A stretch of DNA of 64,000 bases from Gemmatales bacterium (GTDB lineage: Bacteria > Planctomycetota > Planctomycetia > Gemmatales > HRBIN36): contig JBEPZY010000003.1 of the NCBI GenBank assembly GCA_041640595.1, positions 276,773 to 340,772 on the forward strand. Direction: 5' to 3'. Made by a program: the position numbers and the translations under genes. This document shows positions 8,904 through 54,516 of the stretch, in pieces. The notes beneath the pieces are model-generated. The model was not told the origin of the DNA and did not search any database. It worked only from the letters and a program-made list of their open reading frames with translations. How positions within the stretch are numbered: the stretch's first letter is position 1; every line of letters begins with the position of its first letter.

Positions 8904-10328
8904 TCAGGGTTGTGCGGGTGCGAAGACGTACAGCTCGGTAACTTTGGGTGGCTGGTTGTCGAGGAATTTGAGCAGCGGATTGATGTCAATGGGTTTGCTC
9001 AAGTCGCGGGCGCGGGTGAGTTCGTCGAGCGGCTTGATCATGAGCGGCAGGAGTTTCTGCACATAGGATTGTTTGGCGTAAGCGGGGTGGCTTTGCACTT
9101 CCAGAAGCCGGGCCCGGAGCAGAGCCGCGTAGAACTGCCACGGTTGGCGGCGTCCTTCGGTGTCGGCGTTGGCCTGGGTAATCAGCTCGGCGACAAACCG
9201 GCCGACCTCGTGGAAAGCGTAGTCGCTCTGGTAGGGCCCTTTCGCATCGGGCAGCAGTGCCAGCAATCCTGCCGCCGCTTCTACCTGTTCGGCGAGGGAA
9301 GGTTGTGGGCTGAATTTCGCGGCTGGGTCAGCTTTCATGACCTGGAGAAAAATTTCCGCGACTCGGCCGGTCTTGGGATTGGCCGGGTCGAGCAGGGGTC
9401 GGCGAAGGTGAGCCAGTGCGCGTAATCCCGCCCGACGGAACGACTGCCAGCCCGCCTGTTCTTCCGATGGCCAGGTTTTGATCAGGGCCGGATCGAGATG
9501 GTAGGCCCAGGTGAGCCAGCGTTCGATGAGGGTAGCGGCTCGGGTTACGATTTCCGGCGGCAAAATGATCCGCTTCGGATCGCGGTTGCTGGCCACGGCG
9601 TGAAACAGCTCACCAAAACCGCGGATCGCCCAGTAGCGCTCGGATTGGTGCGCTGCCGAAGCATCTATCGGATACTTTTCCAGCGGATACAAAAGGACAG
9701 GGTAGATCTCGCCGATCCCTCGTTCGGCAAACAGGTAGGCCATGCGCATCGCGTTGATGCGTACAATCGGTCGCGGATCCTGCAAAACCCGCAGCAAGGC
9801 CGGAACGAACGCTCTGGCCAGTTCGCTGGCGTACTGGCGAACGCGGCGAGTCTGTTCGGGCGGAATATCCTCGCTCAATTCCAGGGCGCGGGCAAACGGT
9901 AACACCGTTTTGGCAAGCTGATCCATGTGTTCGCGGAGGGCGTTTGGTGTCGTGTACATCGGATTTTCATGGGTAAGTCTGTAGGCGTAAAACCGTGCCA
10001 CCTGTTCGAGCAACTTGCGGCGCTCCTGCTCATCCATGCTGAACTCGACATCGCCACTTCGCAACCGCGCCAGGGGAATTCGGTGGGCAGGAAGCAACTT
10101 TCCCTCGTCGAGACGGAGCGATTCTGCGGTCAGTGCGATGCCGGGCGCGACCGGTTTGGCAGGTGCTTTGTCCCCCGCCTTCTGGGCTGCGGGATCCTCG
10201 GCCGGCTTAGCGGGGGCTGGTTTGTCGGTGGGCTTGTCTTTATCGGGCTTTTCCGGCGCGGATTTCTCCTGTGCCACCACCAGTGCCGCAACCACCATCA
10301 AAATAGCGCAGACTGATTTGTGCCGCAT
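8904..10328 (-). CDS. Secreted alpha-helical hypothetical protein (HEAT-like)
   Basis: Signal peptide from MRHKSV, K/P/A-rich linker, 'LQDPRPIVRINAMR' HEAT-like segment. Confidence 0.7.
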   Translation of the reverse strand: MRHKSVCAILMVVAALVVAQEKSAPEKPDKDKPTDKPAPAKPAEDPAAQKAGDKAPAKPVAPGIALTAESLRLDEGKLLPAHRIPLARLRSGDVEFSMDEQERRKLLEQVARFYAYRLTHENPMYTTPNALREHMDQLAKTVLPFARALELSEDIPPEQTRRVRQYASELARAFVPALLRVLQDPRPIVRINAMRMAYLFAERGIGEIYPVLLYPLEKYPIDASAAHQSERYWAIRGFGELFHAVASNRDPKRIILPPEIVTRAATLIERWLTWAYHLDPALIKTWPSEEQAGWQSFRRAGLRALAHLRRPLLDPANPKTGRVAEIFLQVMKADPAAKFSPQPSLAEQVEAAAGLLALLPDAKGPYQSDYAFHEVGRFVAELITQANADTEGRRQPWQFYAALLRARLLEVQSHPAYAKQSYVQKLLPLMIKPLDELTRARDLSKPIDINPLLKFLDNQPPKVTELYVFAPAQP

Positions 10329-10535
10329 GAGGTGTCTCCCAAGGCGGATTGACTGGACTACCTGAAGCAGAGCCCGGCCCCCCAACTGAGATGCCTCCAC
10401 CATCAGGTTATCACCGCATCTCCACCGCGTCAAGCATCAGCGAAGCCGGAGACTTGCGACTGCGGTTCGATCTGACTGTCGGCCACTCACCTGCGAGAGA
10501 ATCGCTCTCTCGCAATGACGGCTGCCGTCGCAGTA

Positions 10536-10876
10536 CCACGGCGGGCTGACGCCCACCGCTCTTGGTCGTGCGTGCGTATGTGCAGCGTAAAAATCGTTTT
10601 TTCGCCGGCAGAGATGCGCGTTCCGCCACAAGAGCGGGGGGCGTTAGCCCCCCGTGGCGCCGATAAACGCGAATGCAACGGCAATCCGCACACACACCGT
10701 CGGCGGTCTGCCGACGAATAGCGGGCGTGTGTGCGGATGCGATTTTGCCGGCCCACGGCGGGCTGACGCCCGCCGCTCTTGTTCGGATGTGCGGATGTGC
10801 AGCGTAAAAATCGTTTTTTCGCCGGCAGAGATGCGCGTTCGACCGCAAGAGCGGGGGGCGTTAGCCCCCCGTGGTG
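10536..10876. repeat. REP-like palindrome cluster 1 (between convergent-side genes)
   Basis: Alternating-orientation copies of CCACGGCGGGCTGACGCCCGCCGCTCTTG and CAAGAGCGGGGGGCGTTAGCCCCCCGTGG with conserved linkers. Confidence 0.85.
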
Positions 10877-11044
10877 TTGCTCTACGCGATGGCAACCCTA
10901 AGGCGACCACAATGGCCTACTGATTTAGTAACGCGTTAGCCCCCCGTGGTGTTGCTCTACGCGATGGCAACGACGGGGTCTGCAAAGTTATCGTGGACCC
11001 CGACGGTCGTTAGCCCCCGTGGTGTCGCTCCACGCGATGGCAAC
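10860..11044 (+). CRISPR. CRISPR-like mini-array built from REP sequence: 3 repeats, 2 unique spacers
   Basis: Repeat GTTAGCCCCCCGTGGTGTTGCTCTACGCGATGGCAAC at 10860-10896 and 10935-10971 (identical) and 11009-11044 (one deletion, two substitutions); unrelated 38 and 37 bp spacers. No cas genes nearby. Confidence 0.55.
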
Positions 11045-11156
11045 GGCGGTCGGCACACGTACTCTCGGCGGTCTTCCGAGCGTTCGCGCTCGGGCCGGAT
11101 AGTACTTACGGGCGATCGTAGCAACCGCGAGGGGGTTTGCGAACCGGAGCAGAGCG

Positions 11157-12128
11157 TTACTCGGCGGGGAAGAGCGGTGTACTCAGATACCGTTCGCCGA
11201 GGTCGGGGATGATGACGACGATGACCTTACCTGCATTTTCCGGCCGATGGGCTACCTGTAAGGCCGCCCAGGTCGCCGCACCGGCACTGATCCCGCACAG
11301 GATACCTTCTTCCCGTGCCAGCCGACGCGACATCTCGAAGGCATCCTCATCCTGGACGGTGATAACCTCATCAATGATGTTGAGATTGAGCACATCGGGA
11401 ATGAAACCGGCACCGATACCCTGAATGCGATGTCGGCCGGGCTTGATCGGCTCACCGCGTAGCCGCTGGCTAATGACCGGGCTGGCGGCCGGCTCGACGG
11501 CAATGCAGCGGAAGGTGGGTTTGCGTTTCTTGATTACCTCGCCCACGCCGGTGATGGTTCCGCCTGTGCCCACGCCGCTGACCAGGATGTCGGCAGCGCC
11601 GCCGGTGTCGTTCCAGATTTCTTCGGCAGTGGTTCGGCGATGGATTTCCGGGTTGGCGGGGTTCTTGAACTGCTGCGGCATGTAGGCGTTGGGGGTTTTG
11701 GCCAGGATTTCCTCGGCTTTGGCAACCGCCCCACGCATCCCCTGATCGCCGGGCGTCAGGATGATTTCCGCACCGAATGCTTTGAGCAACCGCCGACGCT
11801 CGATGCTCATCGTTTCCGGCATGGTGACGATGAGCTTGTAGCCTTTGGCAGCGCAGGTGAACGCCAGAGCAATTCCCGTGTTGCCGCTGGTCGGTTCGAC
11901 AATCACGCTCTCGCCGGGTTTGATTTTCCCCTCGCGTTCTGCGGCTTCGATCATGGCCACGCCGATTCGATCCTTCACCGACCATAGCGGGTTGAAATTC
12001 TCCAGTTTCGCCAGCACGGTCGCTTTGGCGTCGCCGACCACGCGGCGGAGTTTGACCAGTGGCGTGTGGCCGATGGTTTCGGTAATGCTTTCATACACGC
12101 GACCACGAAACGGCAATGGATATTTCAT
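11157..12128 (-). CDS. cysK: Cysteine synthase A
   Basis: [44 protein letters not shown]. Confidence 0.97.
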
Positions 12129-14817: not shown

Positions 14818-15795
14818 ATGAACCGACCGATGCAGCTGACCTTCGATCTTACATCCGAGCAAGAAGCAGAAGTGGAGCAGTTGCAGTCCCTGCTCGTGGC
14901 GGAAATGAGAAATAAGAACAAAAGCGGTAAAGTCTTAGCGATTCGCTGGTACGGTGGTAAGTTTAGCCATCTGGACTGGCTACTACCGCTTTTACCTCGA
15001 TGTCAGCATTTCTGCGAACCGTTCGGTGGCTCTGCAGCGGTTCTGCTAAACAGGGATCCAGCGCCGGTGGAGACGTACAACGACATTGATGGTGACCTCG
15101 TCAACTTTTTCCGAGTGCTGCGGGACAAACCGGAAGAGCTTATCGAGAAACTGGTATTGACGCCATTCTCGCGGGAGGAATTTCGTGCGGCTTACCAGAT
15201 GCGTGGCAGAGCCGACCTACCCGACGTCGAAAGAGCACGCCTGTTTTTTGTCCGTGCAGAACAGGTACGAATCGGACTAGCCCAAACCTCCACGGCGGGA
15301 CGATGGGCTTGGTGCAAGCTTACCAGTAGAAGGGGCATGTCAGGCTCCATTTCCCGATGGCTCAACAGGATAGATGCACTGTGGGCTGTGAGCGAGAGGC
15401 TCCGGAGAGTTCAGATCGAAAATCGGGATGCCATCGAGCTGATCGAGCAGTATGACAGCCCGGAAACGCTATTCTATGTGGACCCACCTTATCCCCACGA
15501 GGCCCGCGGGGACGTTCACTCCTATGCTTACGAGCTGACAGAAGCGGATCACGAAAAACTCGCCTCCGTCCTGCATTCCGTAAGGGGCAAAGTCGCTCTT
15601 TCAGGATACCGCTCTCCGCTCACCGACCGACTTTACCGCGACTGGACGCGAATAGACGCTCCTCAGGCTATCATTCACTCCGTCAAAAAACCACGCACAG
15701 AATCCGTTTGGATCAATTACAAACTCGCGGAGATTGGCCAGTCGGCCGTTCGCAAATTAAAGGAGTTAGGAGTCAAGTTCCATGTCCACGCCTAA
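14818..15795 (+). CDS. DNA adenine methyltransferase (Dam/D12 class)
   Basis: WYGGK, EPFGGS, YNDID and YVDPPY motifs. Confidence 0.93.
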   Translation: MNRPMQLTFDLTSEQEAEVEQLQSLLVAEMRNKNKSGKVLAIRWYGGKFSHLDWLLPLLPRCQHFCEPFGGSAAVLLNRDPAPVETYNDIDGDLVNFFRVLRDKPEELIEKLVLTPFSREEFRAAYQMRGRADLPDVERARLFFVRAEQVRIGLAQTSTAGRWAWCKLTSRRGMSGSISRWLNRIDALWAVSERLRRVQIENRDAIELIEQYDSPETLFYVDPPYPHEARGDVHSYAYELTEADHEKLASVLHSVRGKVALSGYRSPLTDRLYRDWTRIDAPQAIIHSVKKPRTESVWINYKLAEIGQSAVRKLKELGVKFHVHA

Positions 15796-16888
15796 GGATT
15801 TACAAGCCGAAGCAAAAGCGGTGCTGGAGTCGGCATGGGAACAAGTGAAGCGTATCCCCACAGAAGACCTTGAGAGCCACCACTTTGTGGCCGAGGTCGA
15901 GCTTCAAGCAAAGATAAAGGAGTTGATCACTGCTCGCACCACGGCTTTCCGGTATGCAGTTCTGACTCAGGCTCTCGCCAAGGCTTCACAACAAGACCTA
16001 AACTGTCTCGTGCTTCAAGCTGGCGCGGGTCTCCCAGGGGCATTCGACGCCAGGTCGCTTTGTAAAAAAGTCGTCGTTCCGTTTGAGAGGCGATATTTCC
16101 CAGGCGTTCTTGGAACATCTCAGGATCCCTATGTTAGCAAGCCGCTTCGGCGTCCGTGCGTTACTTTGGAAAAGCGGGTTCTTCGCGAAATCAAAAACAA
16201 GGGCGAATGGGAGAAGCTATATGATTTGTTGAACGCGATCGAGCAGCGCAACGACCCCGACTTTAGTCAACGTGTACTCAGGCAGGTCTTGTTGGAAATA
16301 CGCAGGCTCGCATCGCAGCGACTGCCACCTTTGCCCAAAAACATAAGCGCGGGGGCGATTCGGGCCATTTTGGAGAAATACCTTGCCCGTTCTACCCTGG
16401 GTTTGGGACCCCAAGCTGTTGCTTATGCGTTACTGAAAGTTTTCAACAAACGAACTCGCGCCTATCAGGAGGTGATCAGCAATCAGCCAACCACCCCCGA
16501 TGCTGCTGCCGGCCGTGCAGCCGATATCGAGTGCACGGGCCCAGATGGTACTTTGCAGCTCGCTGTCTGTGTAACCCAGAGACTGGATGTTCAAAAACTG
16601 GAAGAGGATTTGAGAAAGTGCAGCCAAAGTGCGGTAGCCAACGTTTTATTCCTGGCCTCCCAGATTACTGTGGACTTGGAGGAGGCGTATCGAAAGGCGG
16701 CCGAGCACGGGGTCAATGCCACGATTAACACGCTCCGTGACTTTGTGTTATCTGTTACGGCTCTGCTGAACGGCGAAATGCGACGGGAATTGATCGAGGA
16801 GGTCGTGCAAGTTCTGGATGATTGGGGCGGTATCAGCGCCGTGACCGAGTTGACCGACGTGATCAGGGAGATATTGGGCTTGCCGTAA
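15782..16888 (+). CDS. Probable type II restriction endonuclease (SacI family-like)
   Basis: Overlaps the methylase; 'GAFDARSLCKKVVVPFE...LG.S.DPYVSKPLR' and 'D...GRAADI' resemble SacI-family proteins; lower GC than flanks. Confidence 0.7.
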   Translation: MSTPKDLQAEAKAVLESAWEQVKRIPTEDLESHHFVAEVELQAKIKELITARTTAFRYAVLTQALAKASQQDLNCLVLQAGAGLPGAFDARSLCKKVVVPFERRYFPGVLGTSQDPYVSKPLRRPCVTLEKRVLREIKNKGEWEKLYDLLNAIEQRNDPDFSQRVLRQVLLEIRRLASQRLPPLPKNISAGAIRAILEKYLARSTLGLGPQAVAYALLKVFNKRTRAYQEVISNQPTTPDAAAGRAADIECTGPDGTLQLAVCVTQRLDVQKLEEDLRKCSQSAVANVLFLASQITVDLEEAYRKAAEHGVNATINTLRDFVLSVTALLNGEMRRELIEEVVQVLDDWGGISAVTELTDVIREILGLP

Positions 16889-21992: not shown

Positions 21993-22104
21993 GGTCGCAA
22001 TGCCGCCAGATGGGGCGGTACAATGACAGCGTTCGGGCCGGCTGGCTGTCTCTGGCACACCAAGAAGGTCGCGATGCCGCCAGATGGGTCGGTACAATGA
22101 CAGC
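21993..22104 (+). repeat. 38-bp direct repeat flanking a unique 36-bp insert
   Basis: GGTCGC(A/G)ATGCCGCCAGATGGG(G/T)CGGTACAATGACAGC at 21993-22030 and 22067-22104. Confidence 0.85.
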
Positions 22105-30394: not shown

Positions 30395-30501
30395 GGACAG
30401 CCGTCGGCCGAGCAGCGGGAAACATGCCCGTCGAACATCGCTGGCTCGAATCCGGCCGCTCGGTTGGACACTCGTGGGCCGGGCTGCGGGGAACATGCCC
30501 G
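30395..30501 (+). repeat. Decayed 36-bp direct repeat flanking a 35-bp insert
   Basis: 30395-30430 vs 30466-30501, 30/36 identical. Confidence 0.65.
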
Positions 30502-35644: not shown

Positions 35645-37036
35645 ATGCGTGTTGCCTTTATAACCGCCGGTGCAGCCGGGATGATTTGCGGCAGCTGTTT
35701 GCGCGATAATGTATTAGTGCGCACTTTGCGAAAGCAGGGGCGCGATTGCCTGTTAATCCCCACTTATACTCCGCCGCGCACGGATTCGCCCAATGTTAGT
35801 CTGCCGGAGGTGTTTTTTAGTGGTCTAAGTGTTTACTTAGAGCAGAAAATCCCTTACCTGCGACGTCCGCCGAACTGGTTGCAGCGCTGGCTCAGTTCGC
35901 CGACGTTATTACGCTGGATAAGTCGCCTGGCCCTGACAACCCGCGCTGAAGAACTTGGCGAGTTGACGCTTTCCATGCTCCGCGGCTTAGACGGTTACCA
36001 GGCCTGCGAAATCGAACGCCTGGTGCACTGGCTGGCGCACGAATATGCTCCCGATTTAGTCTGTTTCTCTAATATCCTGCTTTCAGGTGCGGTGCCAGCT
36101 ATCAAGGAGCGATTAGATTGCACCGTCGTAACCACCTTGCAAGGGGACGATATATTTCTCGAACATCTGCCGCCTTCTTATAAACAGGCCGCTATCGAGC
36201 TGATTCGCCACAACGCCCGCTATATAGATGCTTATCTCGTTCCCTGCCAGGACTATGCCGATTTCATGGCGGACTATTTAGGGCTACCCCGTTCCGCCAT
36301 GACCGCGGTGTATTTAGGTATAGACGTGGAGGAATTCGACCGGGCCCGCGAGACTGTACTTATAGGGAACTCATGTACACTTGATAAAGGTTCGCCGCGG
36401 CGTGCCGAACCGGCTGACCTTCAAGGAACCGAAAAACGGCAGCCGTGGCGCATAGGGTACCTGGCACGGATTTGTCCGGAGAAAGGGTTGCATGTCTTAG
36501 TCGAGGCAGTGGAGGAATTGATCCGACGCGGACGACCGGTAGTCCTGGAAGTGGCCGGCTATTTAGGTCCGGCAGACCGACACTATTTCGAGCAGCAACG
36601 CCAGCGGGCTATCCGCAACGGCTGGCAGGACCGCTTCTGTTACCGCGGAGAACTCGATTATGTGCGGAAAGTACAGTTCCTGACCGGCCTGGATGTCTTC
36701 AGTGTGCCGACGATTTATCGGGAACCGAAGGGGCTGTATGTGCTGGAAGCGTGGGCGGCAGGGTTGCCGGTAGTGCAACCGGCCCACGGTTCGTTTCCGG
36801 AACTCATCGGCAGAAGCGGTGCGGGAATGCTTTTCCCACCAGGCCAATCCTCCGCTCTGGCAGATGCTCTCGACGCGTTGCTGCATCAACCGCAATACTG
36901 CCGCGAATTGGGCCAGCGCGGTCGCCAAGCCGTGGAGACTTTTTTCCATGCCCACCGCATGGCGGAGGAAACCTGGCAGACCTGGCAGCAAGTGCACGCC
37001 AGCCGAAAAGAACCCGCCCCTTCGCCGGTAGGATAG
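35645..37036 (+). CDS. Glycosyltransferase family 4
   Basis: GYLARI.PEKG and EPKGLYVLEA.A.G.PVV (EX7E). Confidence 0.92.
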   Translation: MRVAFITAGAAGMICGSCLRDNVLVRTLRKQGRDCLLIPTYTPPRTDSPNVSLPEVFFSGLSVYLEQKIPYLRRPPNWLQRWLSSPTLLRWISRLALTTRAEELGELTLSMLRGLDGYQACEIERLVHWLAHEYAPDLVCFSNILLSGAVPAIKERLDCTVVTTLQGDDIFLEHLPPSYKQAAIELIRHNARYIDAYLVPCQDYADFMADYLGLPRSAMTAVYLGIDVEEFDRARETVLIGNSCTLDKGSPRRAEPADLQGTEKRQPWRIGYLARICPEKGLHVLVEAVEELIRRGRPVVLEVAGYLGPADRHYFEQQRQRAIRNGWQDRFCYRGELDYVRKVQFLTGLDVFSVPTIYREPKGLYVLEAWAAGLPVVQPAHGSFPELIGRSGAGMLFPPGQSSALADALDALLHQPQYCRELGQRGRQAVETFFHAHRMAEETWQTWQQVHASRKEPAPSPVG

Positions 37037-37235
37037 CGCTGACCTGACGACCATTACGTTCCGTGTTGAAAGCAAGAAGCCGCCCCCTCGCCGGCACGAT
37101 AACGCTGGACTGACGACCGTTTCGATCCAGGTTGAAAACAAGAAGGCGCGCCTTCGCCGGTACGACAGCGCCGGACTGACGACCGTTTCGATCCGTGTTG
37201 AAAACAAGAACCCGTTCCCTCGCCGGCACGATAAC
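37008..37235. repeat. 66-bp tandem repeat, about 3.5 units
   Basis: AAGAA unit starts at 37008, 37074, 37140 and 37206; the whole unit is conserved. Confidence 0.9.
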
Positions 37236-37881: not shown

Positions 37882-38952
37882 TTACGCCGGAAACTCGAAG
37901 TTCAGCAGGGTGATTAGACCGGTGTTGCCGAAGACAGGGGCGAGACCGATGAACGGGTCGATGCCAGCGCCGCCGTCCGCATTCAAACCACCGAGGAAGT
38001 TGGAGCCGCTGACAGTAACCGTATCGTTGCCACCGCCGGTCGAGACCGAGGAAGCGAGTGTGAAGTCGCTGTCGGTGATGTTCACGGTGTCGTCGCCGGT
38101 ACCGGTGGTTACATCCAGGCTCACGGCGGTCACGTCATCAACATCCACGGTGTCCTGAATAATGCTGTCGCCGGCCACGACAAACAGCCGCTTGAAGTCG
38201 CTACTAGCCAACGTGATGATATCGCTACCATCGCCGGTGCTGATGCGGGTAATGTTCCCGTCCACGTCGCTGTCTGTAATGTTGATGTTGTTGTCGCCGT
38301 CGTTGGCGGCAATCAGCAGGTTCTTCGCAATCGTGGCATTGGCAAGGTCAATCGTATCGGGGTCATTGCCAGTAGTTATGCTGACGTTACCACCAACGCC
38401 GAAGGTGCTTCCTGTGACCGTGTTGTCACCGTCGCCGAGCGTGGCGGTGAAGTTTCCTTTCAGGAAAGTGGGAATGCCTCCAGGCGTCGTATCAATGTCC
38501 ACAGTGTCGTCGCCGGCGCCTGCGCGAATGGTCGTGGTGCCCCTGACGAAGAGGTTTTCCAGACCGACGGTGTTGTTGCCGTCGCCCAGGTCGATGCGCA
38601 GGTTGCCGAGGATGGCCAGACTTCTACTTCCGCCATTTCCGGGGTTATCGCCCAGGACGATAGTGTCGTCGCCGCCGCGTAGATTGATGAAGACGGACTT
38701 ACCCGTGCCCAGAGAGAACACAAGGGCAGTCGAGGAGCCATTGATGGTCGTCCCAGCGCCCTCGATCCGAATCGCGTTAGCACCGACGTTCCAGAGGGCC
38801 AGGACGTTGTTGCCGCCGTCGCCGATGATGTACAGGTTGCCTCCGGACAGGTACGCCTGGACATTGCCAGTACCGCCGCCGATCGAGCCGACGTTCGGCG
38901 TGGTGCGGGATTCGAGAGCTTCGACACGGAGCAAAGTACGGTTGCTGTGCAT
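37882..38952 (-). CDS. Planctomycete extracellular beta-solenoid protein with LEPR-XLL-like leader, copy 1
   Basis: 'LRVEALESRTTP' leader and G.G.D.(I/V) repeats; GGAGG RBS. Confidence 0.85.
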   Translation of the reverse strand: MHSNRTLLRVEALESRTTPNVGSIGGGTGNVQAYLSGGNLYIIGDGGNNVLALWNVGANAIRIEGAGTTINGSSTALVFSLGTGKSVFINLRGGDDTIVLGDNPGNGGSRSLAILGNLRIDLGDGNNTVGLENLFVRGTTTIRAGAGDDTVDIDTTPGGIPTFLKGNFTATLGDGDNTVTGSTFGVGGNVSITTGNDPDTIDLANATIAKNLLIAANDGDNNINITDSDVDGNITRISTGDGSDIITLASSDFKRLFVVAGDSIIQDTVDVDDVTAVSLDVTTGTGDDTVNITDSDFTLASSVSTGGGNDTVTVSGSNFLGGLNADGGAGIDPFIGLAPVFGNTGLITLLNFEFPA

Positions 38953-39797
38953 GGTCCTCAGACCTCCTGTTGGGAGCTGCCGCAGCACCAATCCGGTGTG
39001 AGCGTACCGCACGCTCAAGGGGAAAGTCGCACCGGATTCGGGCGGACGAGCTCCAGACCCACGATGCATTCGACCGTCCGCGGCGACGCAAAGCCGTAAG
39101 CGTCCCGGTGGACGGATGGTTCACGAAATCCGGTAATGGTTATCCTCGCTCAGTTCGTCTTGAGCCACGGCGGGCTGACGCCCGCCGCTCTTGGTGCCCG
39201 CGCGAAGATTCTCCGAACTGTGCCACGTCTCCGTTGCAAGTGCGTTTCCCGAACCCACGGCGGGCTGACGCCCGCCGCTCTTCGTTGGTCAGTCGGTTGT
39301 CGCGTGTGTGTGAGCGATTGCCGTTGCCGATGCGGTTGCCAGCCACGGGGGGCTGACGCCCCCCGCGCATGACTTCGCAGACGTTGTTGGCCGATCATCA
39401 TCTGCAACGCCCTGCAACCACGACTGCTTAAAAGCCACGGGGGGCTTACGCCCCCCGCTCTTGTTTGGGCTGACGCCCGCCCCTCCTAGTATCGGCGTGA
39501 AAATCGCCGAAATGTGCCGTATCGCGGTTGCAGATGCGGTTCTCATAGTCGCGGGGCGCCGGGGTTTTGCGGTGGCCCCACGATCCCGTGCCGGTTGGAA
39601 GGTGGTCTTGGAAGAAGCCTACCTTCGCTCGCACAGACGCTGGCACAGGATCCCCGGCGCCCGCGGGCATGGTCTAGACGGCCAGTGAATACACACCGGC
39701 GGTCGGGCGCTTAGAGCGATATTTCATAGCGCCAGCCGATACTCGCCGGCAGCGAATCCGCCGCGTAGCGCTCTCAGCGACAGATGCGGGGAAGAAA

Positions 39798-51865: not shown

Positions 51866-52063
51866 GCGCGAGCGTTCTCCTTCGACGAAAACCTCGCCGA
51901 AAAACGCTCGCCATCGCCGATGCGTTTCCCCCACGGCGGGTGTCCGTGTGCACGGGCGCGTGGCGAATCAGTAGAATAAGCCCTGCGAAAAGCAGGAATA
52001 GCGACCGGGCCGAGTTCCGCTACTTGTGGCGAATCAGTAGAATAATCGCTGCCCCGCTGCTTG

Positions 52064-52160
52064 GTGCTAATCGAACCAACGTGGGATTGAAAACTTACTC
52101 AGGAAGTGAAGGCACGTGTTCGGGCGATGCGTGCTAATTGAACCAACGTGGGATTGAAAA
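52064..52160 (+). CRISPR. Orphan CRISPR mini-array: two 30-bp repeats, one 37-bp spacer
   Basis: GTGCTAAT(C/T)GAACCAACGTGGGATTGAAAA at 52064-52093 and 52131-52160; the ATTGAAA(N) 3' end is typical of CRISPR repeats. Confidence 0.8.
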
Positions 52161-54404: not shown

Positions 54405-54516
54405 GTGCTGGTGGTTCGGAGATTGGCAGCTTAGCTTGCGGCACCACAAGACAGAAGATACGCAACTATTTTCTCAAGGTGCTGGTGGTTCGAAGATTGT
54501 CAGCTTAGCTTGCGGC
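54405..54516 (+). repeat. 38-bp direct repeat (includes the lon stop codon) flanking a unique 36-bp insert
   Basis: 54405-54442 vs 54479-54516, 2 mismatches. Confidence 0.85.

Follow-up and report, generated by a model that had tools for sequence, protein, structure and literature searches.

The locus lies in a window of 64,000 nucleotides (contig C3, positions 276773-340772, of the source genome, G000), between two genes on the minus strand: one, at 8904-10433, encodes a hypothetical protein without a Pfam match, and the other, at 11157-12128, a PLP-dependent enzyme (PF00291), presumably cysteine-synthase-like, read-through from which would cross the repeats on the minus strand. Further along the window, at 14818-16888, lie two ORFs, the first resembling a DNA adenine methyltransferase and the second a restriction-endonuclease-like protein, as read from the translations. 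The intergenic region opens with a REP cluster, three hairpin copies of which lie at 10536-10564, 10629-10657 and 10753-10781. The last hairpin of the cluster (10846-10874; z = -4.3) has a 9-bp stem, formed by 10851-10859 and 10864-10872, and a 4-nt GTTA loop, and it is at this loop that a three-copy unit begins (10860-11044). The first copy, R1 (10860-10896), covers the REP loop, the right arm and the linker, with the hairpin still intact; it is followed by insert 1, of 38 nt (10897-10934), by R2 (10935-10971), identical to R1 over 37 nt, by insert 2, of 37 nt (10972-11008), which folds into a hairpin (z = -3.2), and by R3 (11009-11044), a degenerate distal copy of 36 nt, all on the plus strand. 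The left arm of the REP hairpin (10846-10859, plus strand) lies on the side of the newest insert and, from the hairpin fold and the order of insertion described below, we infer that it stands in for a leader. The exact match between R1 and R2 reaches 2 nt further upstream, giving 39 nt (10858-10896 and 10933-10971), and the duplicated unit may be one of 39 nt starting at 10858, in which case the inserts would be 36 nt (insert 1 then ending at 10932) and 35 nt.

The initial annotation described the unit as the right half of a REP plus its linker, a segment that stands singly in other REP clusters, and both statements proved correct: uninterrupted paralogues, including one within the upstream cluster at 10643-10679, run directly into GGC.ATCCGCA or GGCG.TCGGC, like the REP-linker continuation that follows R3 (11045-11090, plus strand). 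R3 is indeed the degenerate copy, having lost one C of a C-run and differing from R1 and R2 by two T>C changes, and at the differing positions its linker carries the letters seen in the paralogues, which are of the ancestral type. The earlier proposal of two unique pieces of 38 and 37 bp, added with duplication of the repeat, stands as regards their uniqueness, the lengths depending on whether the register is 37 or 39 nt. Other matches of the two inserts in the 4.45-Mb assembly do not exceed 14-16 nt, and we thus found no recurrence of the inserts as linkers of other REPs. The unit itself has only two exact copies genome-wide and, because solitary direct repeats outside the two favoured periods described below number only about 0.5 per period, the three-copy unit is not a product of chance. 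No Rfam family came close to its gathering score.

G000 contains a 37-nt-repeat array on contig C1, with 247 repeats at periods of mostly 73-75, beside cas2, a group-II-like reverse transcriptase (RT) gene and cas1. These genes precede the array in that order (L018:11435-14615, corresponding to C1 ~356200-359600), the RT being stand-alone and no effector genes adjoining. Arrays with 30-nt repeats lie on C8 and C10, have periods of 65-69 and stand beside cas1b, cas2, cas4, cas3 and cmr genes (type I-B with Cas4/Cas3); Cas6 is encoded on C7 and the Cas10/Cmr genes on C8. A third type of array, with six repeats of 30 nt and the type III-A genes csm4, csm5 and CARF, was seen on a 4.7-kb contig (L022; C20) that may or may not belong to G000. 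The suggestion that the start of the unit mimics a CRISPR repeat failed on comparison with the 37-nt repeat of this genome, which begins with CTC rather than GTT and shares only 14 of 37 positions with the unit; the two ends are alike (ATGGCAAC versus ATTGAAAC, 6/8). The 3' half of the 30-nt I-B repeat on C8 resembles the REP arm (CCACGG.GGG), a likeness that is absent from the repeat of the sister species G003 and is therefore due to chance or recent convergence.

Outside the arrays, solitary direct repeats in G000 peak at periods of 65-68 (59/185) and 72-76 (69/185), their duplicated lengths have modes of 30 and 37 and their inserts a mode of 36, values that match the two arrays of the genome (30+36 and 37+37 nt). 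After filtering, 276 repeat-insert-repeat scars remained outside arrays, 142 of the 30-nt class and 134 of the 37-nt class. A third copy with another insert accompanies 36 of the 276, compared with 5/1104 at wrong lags; by eye, about nine of these 36 are coding or tandem repeats, leaving roughly 25, and a second acquisition is not special to the REP. Scar density ranges from ~4 per Mb on C6 to ~100 per Mb on C2-C4. The window itself contains further 37-class scars at 21993-22104, 30395-30501 and 54405-54516 (periods 74, 71 and 74), as well as a tandem repeat of period 66 at 37008-37230, which probably arose when recombination amplified a 30+36 scar. The idea that deamination had acted with a strand bias on the two copies found no support, as mismatches are near-symmetric (AG 141, GA 116, CT 135, TC 130).

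Relatives were sampled for scars at 4-8% of each genome. G001, whose sole cas1 is of the RT type, gave 15 non-array events at periods of 71-77 and two at 69 in 242 kb; G003 gave eight in 285 kb and G004 one in 186 kb, and cas1-negative G010 none in the 172 kb sampled. G002, by contrast, has the same RT-cas1 and repeat and yet shows only about one scar in 199 kb.

A metagenome scan for the unit returned two loci, L023 and L024, the best-matching runs being hot-spring and mat metagenomes. In L024 (99.4% identical) none of the three copies is missing. L023, with 98.1% identity over 1518 nt, consists of the REP arm and a single unit followed by insert 2 and R3, insert 1 being absent as a clean block, and its R3 is one C shorter still than that of the window. 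Insert 2, common to the window and L023, is the older insert and insert 1 the younger, L023 fitting the predicted intermediate. The copies themselves point the same way: at two positions where R3 and the paralogues have C, a derived T stands in both R1 and R2, which makes the R1/R2 duplication the later one unless the two copies have been homogenised. L023 could also have arisen by recombinational deletion between identical R1 and R2, and would then not be ancestral. A piece that spans insert 1 had depths of 5.5, 23.6 and 4.8 in three DNA runs, in which the flanking gene reached 20, 64 and 25, and in the RNA run X9 (contigs only) two contigs join the REP arm straight to R2; these results hint that insert 1 is polymorphic in the hot-spring runs, a contig depth not being a share of cells. 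Insert 2 carries SNPs among the same kind of runs. A joint of 10853 to 11005 in X6 (depth 10.6) may reflect two deletions or come from a paralogue; the metagenome runs gave no clear view of an orthologue without any insert, and in other species the corresponding intergenic DNA is not conserved.

These alleles bear on one alternative, namely that the locus reflects ordinary turnover of a REP cluster by tandem duplication and decay, the 'inserts' being diverged linkers. REP clusters do duplicate readily (same-strand spacing is mostly 87-95), and some units of 66 and 72 nt end in a decayed left arm. However, the uniqueness of the inserts contrasts with the identity of R1 and R2, insert 1 is missing from L023 as a clean block, and the periods match those of the array rather than the REP spacing; we regard turnover as highly improbable. 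The reading that we prefer, and consider likely, is that the three copies around two inserts record putative off-target events in which the RT-associated Cas1-Cas2 integrated first one spacer and then another.

REP copies in G000 number 818-1059, according to stringency, and are extragenic, clustered and palindromic. Searching for an intact REP, 37 nt from the loop, a unique insert of 36-38 nt and a copy without the left arm, we found this architecture at seven more sites in G000: C5:180127, C3:358804, C10:24235 and a six-copy family (C2:313019 and others), together with C2:165822, C2:578699 and C2:296293, which are weak in linker likeness, 5-8% of REP linkers scoring as well. One REP-loop insert is now present in six copies in G000. 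The searches were motif-anchored and so detect old events more easily, and before counting we set aside families with lags of 62-66 and 71-72 in which the end of the insert is a decayed left arm, a 33-nt tandem at C3:540005, C2:75484 (lag 78, linker unlike) and N-gaps. G003 has four loop-register sites with four different inserts among its 18 exact (23-28 lenient) REPs, two of them in neighbouring REP units that adjoin a third, empty one. Among the four, one site is weak (35%), the null linkers having been taken from G000. In all, 13 insertions start at the loop, at 12 REP sites (nine at eight in G000 and four in G003), with periods of 73-75. Seven of the 13 have a period of 75, whereas only 20% of array periods are at least 75 (P = 0.006), and seven of the 13 inserts end in GC, against 15% of array spacers (P = 0.001), from which it follows that the left cut probably often falls 2 nt inside the stem, giving a duplication of 38-39 nt. 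C's have been lost from the distal copy in 5/13. In G003 a REP-loop-anchored unit of period 66, tandemly amplified, was also observed (L030:1981-2420; G003:C342), possibly a 30-class event in the same register. A class-wide search for the REP double-arm pattern in 400 other genomes, a draw that did not include G003, gave none.

It might be argued that Cas1-Cas2 made the scar and that the REP is incidental, the arms being easy to detect and REPs lying in tolerant noncoding DNA. Consistent with this, 269 of the 276 clean scars have no overlap with a REP core and only 23 lie wholly inside ORFs of at least 300 aa; and when counted by a single pipeline, 2/134 37-class scars start at a REP loop, compared with 0.28-0.68 expected (P ~0.03-0.15, by hand), so that the enrichment in G000 alone is modest. 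The main arguments for a hotspot are therefore G003 and the constancy of the register: four events among so few REPs speak against an incidental role, as do the ~8 G000 sites at offsets -3 to 0, compared with ~2-3 for the remaining registers within 45 nt taken together (by eye). We consider an incidental role unlikely and the REP probably a true integration hotspot.

A boundary tied to the hairpin would also be expected if a REP-associated Y1 transposase (RAYT/TnpA-REP) had cut the hairpin and joined foreign single-stranded DNA to it, duplicating part of the REP, and the same REP family does flank Y1 matches in genomes of sister genera. In G009 (C193), REPs at 38683, 39354 and 39408 surround a PF01797 match at 38959-39165, and in G005 (C42) a Y1 match lies next to one REP. 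However, PF01797 was found neither in G000 (95% complete) nor in three genomes of the same genus; G009, which has Y1, 12 REPs and no cas1 that we could find, has no loop-register units; and the geometry is common to hundreds of scars without a REP. We know of no target duplications of 37-39 nt by HUH enzymes. The transposase reading is largely excluded and appears to us scarcely credible.

The sequences at which the scars formed were examined for likeness to the repeat. Of 86 37-class scars, 15 end in GnAAC, compared with 2.2 ± 1.5 in displaced controls, while in the 30-class the numbers are 3/117 and 2.8. The 37-class scars are enriched for T2, G27, G33, A35 and A36 of the repeat, all five of which are present in the unit on the plus strand. 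In 80 of 818 REPs, GCAA[C/G] ends exactly at +37 from the loop, which is its modal offset; because linkers end in this motif most often at 37 nt, a REP with its linker offers both ends at the distance of the ruler. Two other candidates were discarded, namely a motif obtained by Gibbs sampling (n = 21 and 26), for which the sample was too small and which was overfitted, and mimicry by the REP of a hairpin at the leader-repeat junction, since the 6-bp stem seen there in G000 has no counterpart in the leaders of G001-G003.

The source of the two inserts was sought in several collections. Exact or degenerate pieces gave no protospacer in IMG/VR (one search returned six loci, the best, at 25/37, being at chance level), the GTDB protospacer search gave one match of only 24/37, and BLAST of both inserts against INPHARED and PLSDB gave E values of 3-4 only. 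The true spacers of the 37-nt array fare little better, 1/244 having a match in the assembly, and their sources must therefore be poorly sampled. Contig C15 (L025, 9585 bp) is virus-like, with a weak hit to protein-primed-type DNA polymerase B and a matrixin-like peptidase; its other ORFs have no Pfam family, and its 657-aa protein has no IMG/VR relative. It is matched by 36/341 spacers of the 30-nt arrays, 29 of them with a 5' CCN motif, by 1/244 of the 37-nt array and, at 83-86% (shuffled maximum 65%), by 3/276 scar inserts, but the two inserts of the locus match it at only 21/38 and 21/37. One further scar insert repeats the array spacer A30_185 (30/31). All four foreign-matched inserts are of the 30-class, two being copies of one event and one lying in a near-cognate repeat, and no 37-class insert with a foreign match was found; a foreign origin is thus shown for the sister class. 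One example lies in the window at 52064-52160, where two near-cognate copies of the 30-nt repeat surround a 37-nt insert that matches C15 (32/37, next to CCG); this is a relic array or an ectopic scar, the start of the repeat being closer to the version in G003. Another scar of period 66 adjoins it, at 51960. A preference for hairpins among the inserts was considered, because hairpin-biased spacer choice is described in the available text of PMC8860593, and was rejected: z < -2 was found in 2.2% of 37-class inserts against 9.8% of array spacers. As the class lacks this bias, the hairpin of insert 2 does not count as evidence.

Could the locus function? A working orphan mini-array, with a transcript processed by Cas6 and loaded into a type III or I-B effector, would find Cas6 and the Cas10/Cmr genes in the same genome, and the unit in isolation can form a short helix with 8 nt remaining on its 3' side, like that of the real repeat. 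This helix has a probability of no more than 0.04 in the whole transcript, though, and the fold of the unit is no better than that of shuffled sequences (z = -0.7); no sigma-70-like promoter was found in 10300-11300, the flanking genes are on the other strand, only 14/37 positions agree with the repeat, and the sequence of insert 2 drifts from population to population. A mini-array of this kind is very unlikely, and the chance that the locus works as an immune array in any form appears correspondingly slight. Given the missing promoter-like site, the opposite-strand genes, the lack of a repeat-like helix in the transcript and the SNPs in insert 2, a silent scar is the most likely reading of the locus.

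In one respect the locus resembles a canonical array, in that direct repeats surround unique spacers of similar length and growth appears polarised, R3 being degenerate and the proximal insert absent from L023 (where it may have been lost). It differs in that the unit is not the cognate repeat of any Cas module in the genome, and in that a REP arm, unlike a real leader by eye and without a promoter-like site, lies upstream. The agreement with neo-CRISPR loci is closer: a duplication of 37-39 nt with an insert of 36-38 nt, compared with 37 and 35-39 in the array; forms preceding integration, in the one-insert allele L023 and the empty paralogues; a target partly like the cognate repeat, through its end motif; and intact cas1 and cas2 in G000. 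The locus thus stands outside the canonical arrays but was likely built by the same reaction. We propose that Cas1-Cas2 of the 37-nt-repeat RT module would have mistaken the REP and its linker for a leader-repeat junction, twice. The integrase would attack at the hairpin loop, or 2 nt before it, and then ~37 nt downstream, where the linker ends in TGCAAC or GGCAAC, like the TGAAAC at the end of the repeat; gap filling would then duplicate the attacked segment. Only the proximal copy would keep the REP arm, so that a second spacer would enter there, giving a CRISPR-like polarity, while the distal copy would decay. The initial annotation's main proposal, that spacers were acquired repeatedly at a pseudo-repeat derived from a REP, finds support in a CRISPR geometry like that of the 37-nt array, in the strain with one insert and in the recurrence of the register in two species; it needs the qualification that, with ~276 ectopic scars, the REP would be a favoured target among others, and its enzymology and function are deduced from sequence.

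Formation of neo-CRISPR loci by off-target spacer integration has been reported for the type I-E system of E. coli (Nivala, Shipman and Church 2018, via 10.1101/148544 and PMC6698737), for two other species with only circumstantial evidence in the available text of 10.1101/148544. As described there, those loci share with ours a repeat-length duplication around a spacer-sized insert at a partly repeat-like non-CRISPR site. The present case differs from that account in being natural, fixed or polymorphic in wild populations and obtained without induced Cas expression, in involving an RT-associated module, and in having as its target a high-copy REP that is used in the same register in two species and, here, twice in order. 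In vitro, Cas1-Cas2 integrates beside non-CRISPR inverted repeats or cruciforms (Nunez et al., as summarised in PMC5389526), and in P. furiosus integration occurs at repeat-like plasmid sites, cruciform formation being unnecessary according to the portion of PMC6698737 available, from which it follows that sequence may matter more than structure. Our sites, like those in these two accounts, are palindrome-adjacent and motif-driven; unlike the half-site or plasmid events that they describe in vitro, the junction here lies at the hairpin loop and the events are complete and inherited. The type III-A Cas1-Cas2 of Thermotoga profunda, similar in being a type III adaptation module from a thermophile and in integrating substantially off target, has a low intrinsic fidelity that is corrected by HU (available text of PMC13769266; in vitro data only). 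G000 encodes two HU/IHF-family proteins, and also cas2, so that their loss does not explain the scars. The REPs themselves resemble REP or BIME-like elements associated with Y1 (RAYT), in forming ~1000 extragenic, clustered palindromes whose hairpins, in sister genera, enclose a Y1 gene, but differ from them in that no Y1 gene was found in G000. Off-target array formation is therefore known, and the new part is a natural, repeatedly used REP target; within the literature searched, which included few subscription journals, we found no report of REPs as spacer acceptors or as targets of Cas1-Cas2.

It is likely that very small CRISPR-like arrays, probably silent ones, arise again and again at REP hairpins. 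A broader view, which we put forward only as a speculative and rather doubtful one, is that REPs are leader-repeat mimics that provide ~1000 latent integration sites per genome, nucleate polarised arrays whose captured spacers are carried along by duplication of REP clusters, and so offer a route to a new working repeat family. Evidence on the origin of new CRISPR arrays and repeats has so far come mostly from induced E. coli or from work in vitro, and the present locus provides a natural time series, from empty paralogues through a one-insert to a two-insert allele, at a defined target and repeated independently in a second species. The target rules of RT-associated Cas1-Cas2 become testable in terms of hairpin versus end motif and of a ruler of 37 versus 39 nt, and small orphan arrays called beside REPs can be integration scars rather than immune loci.
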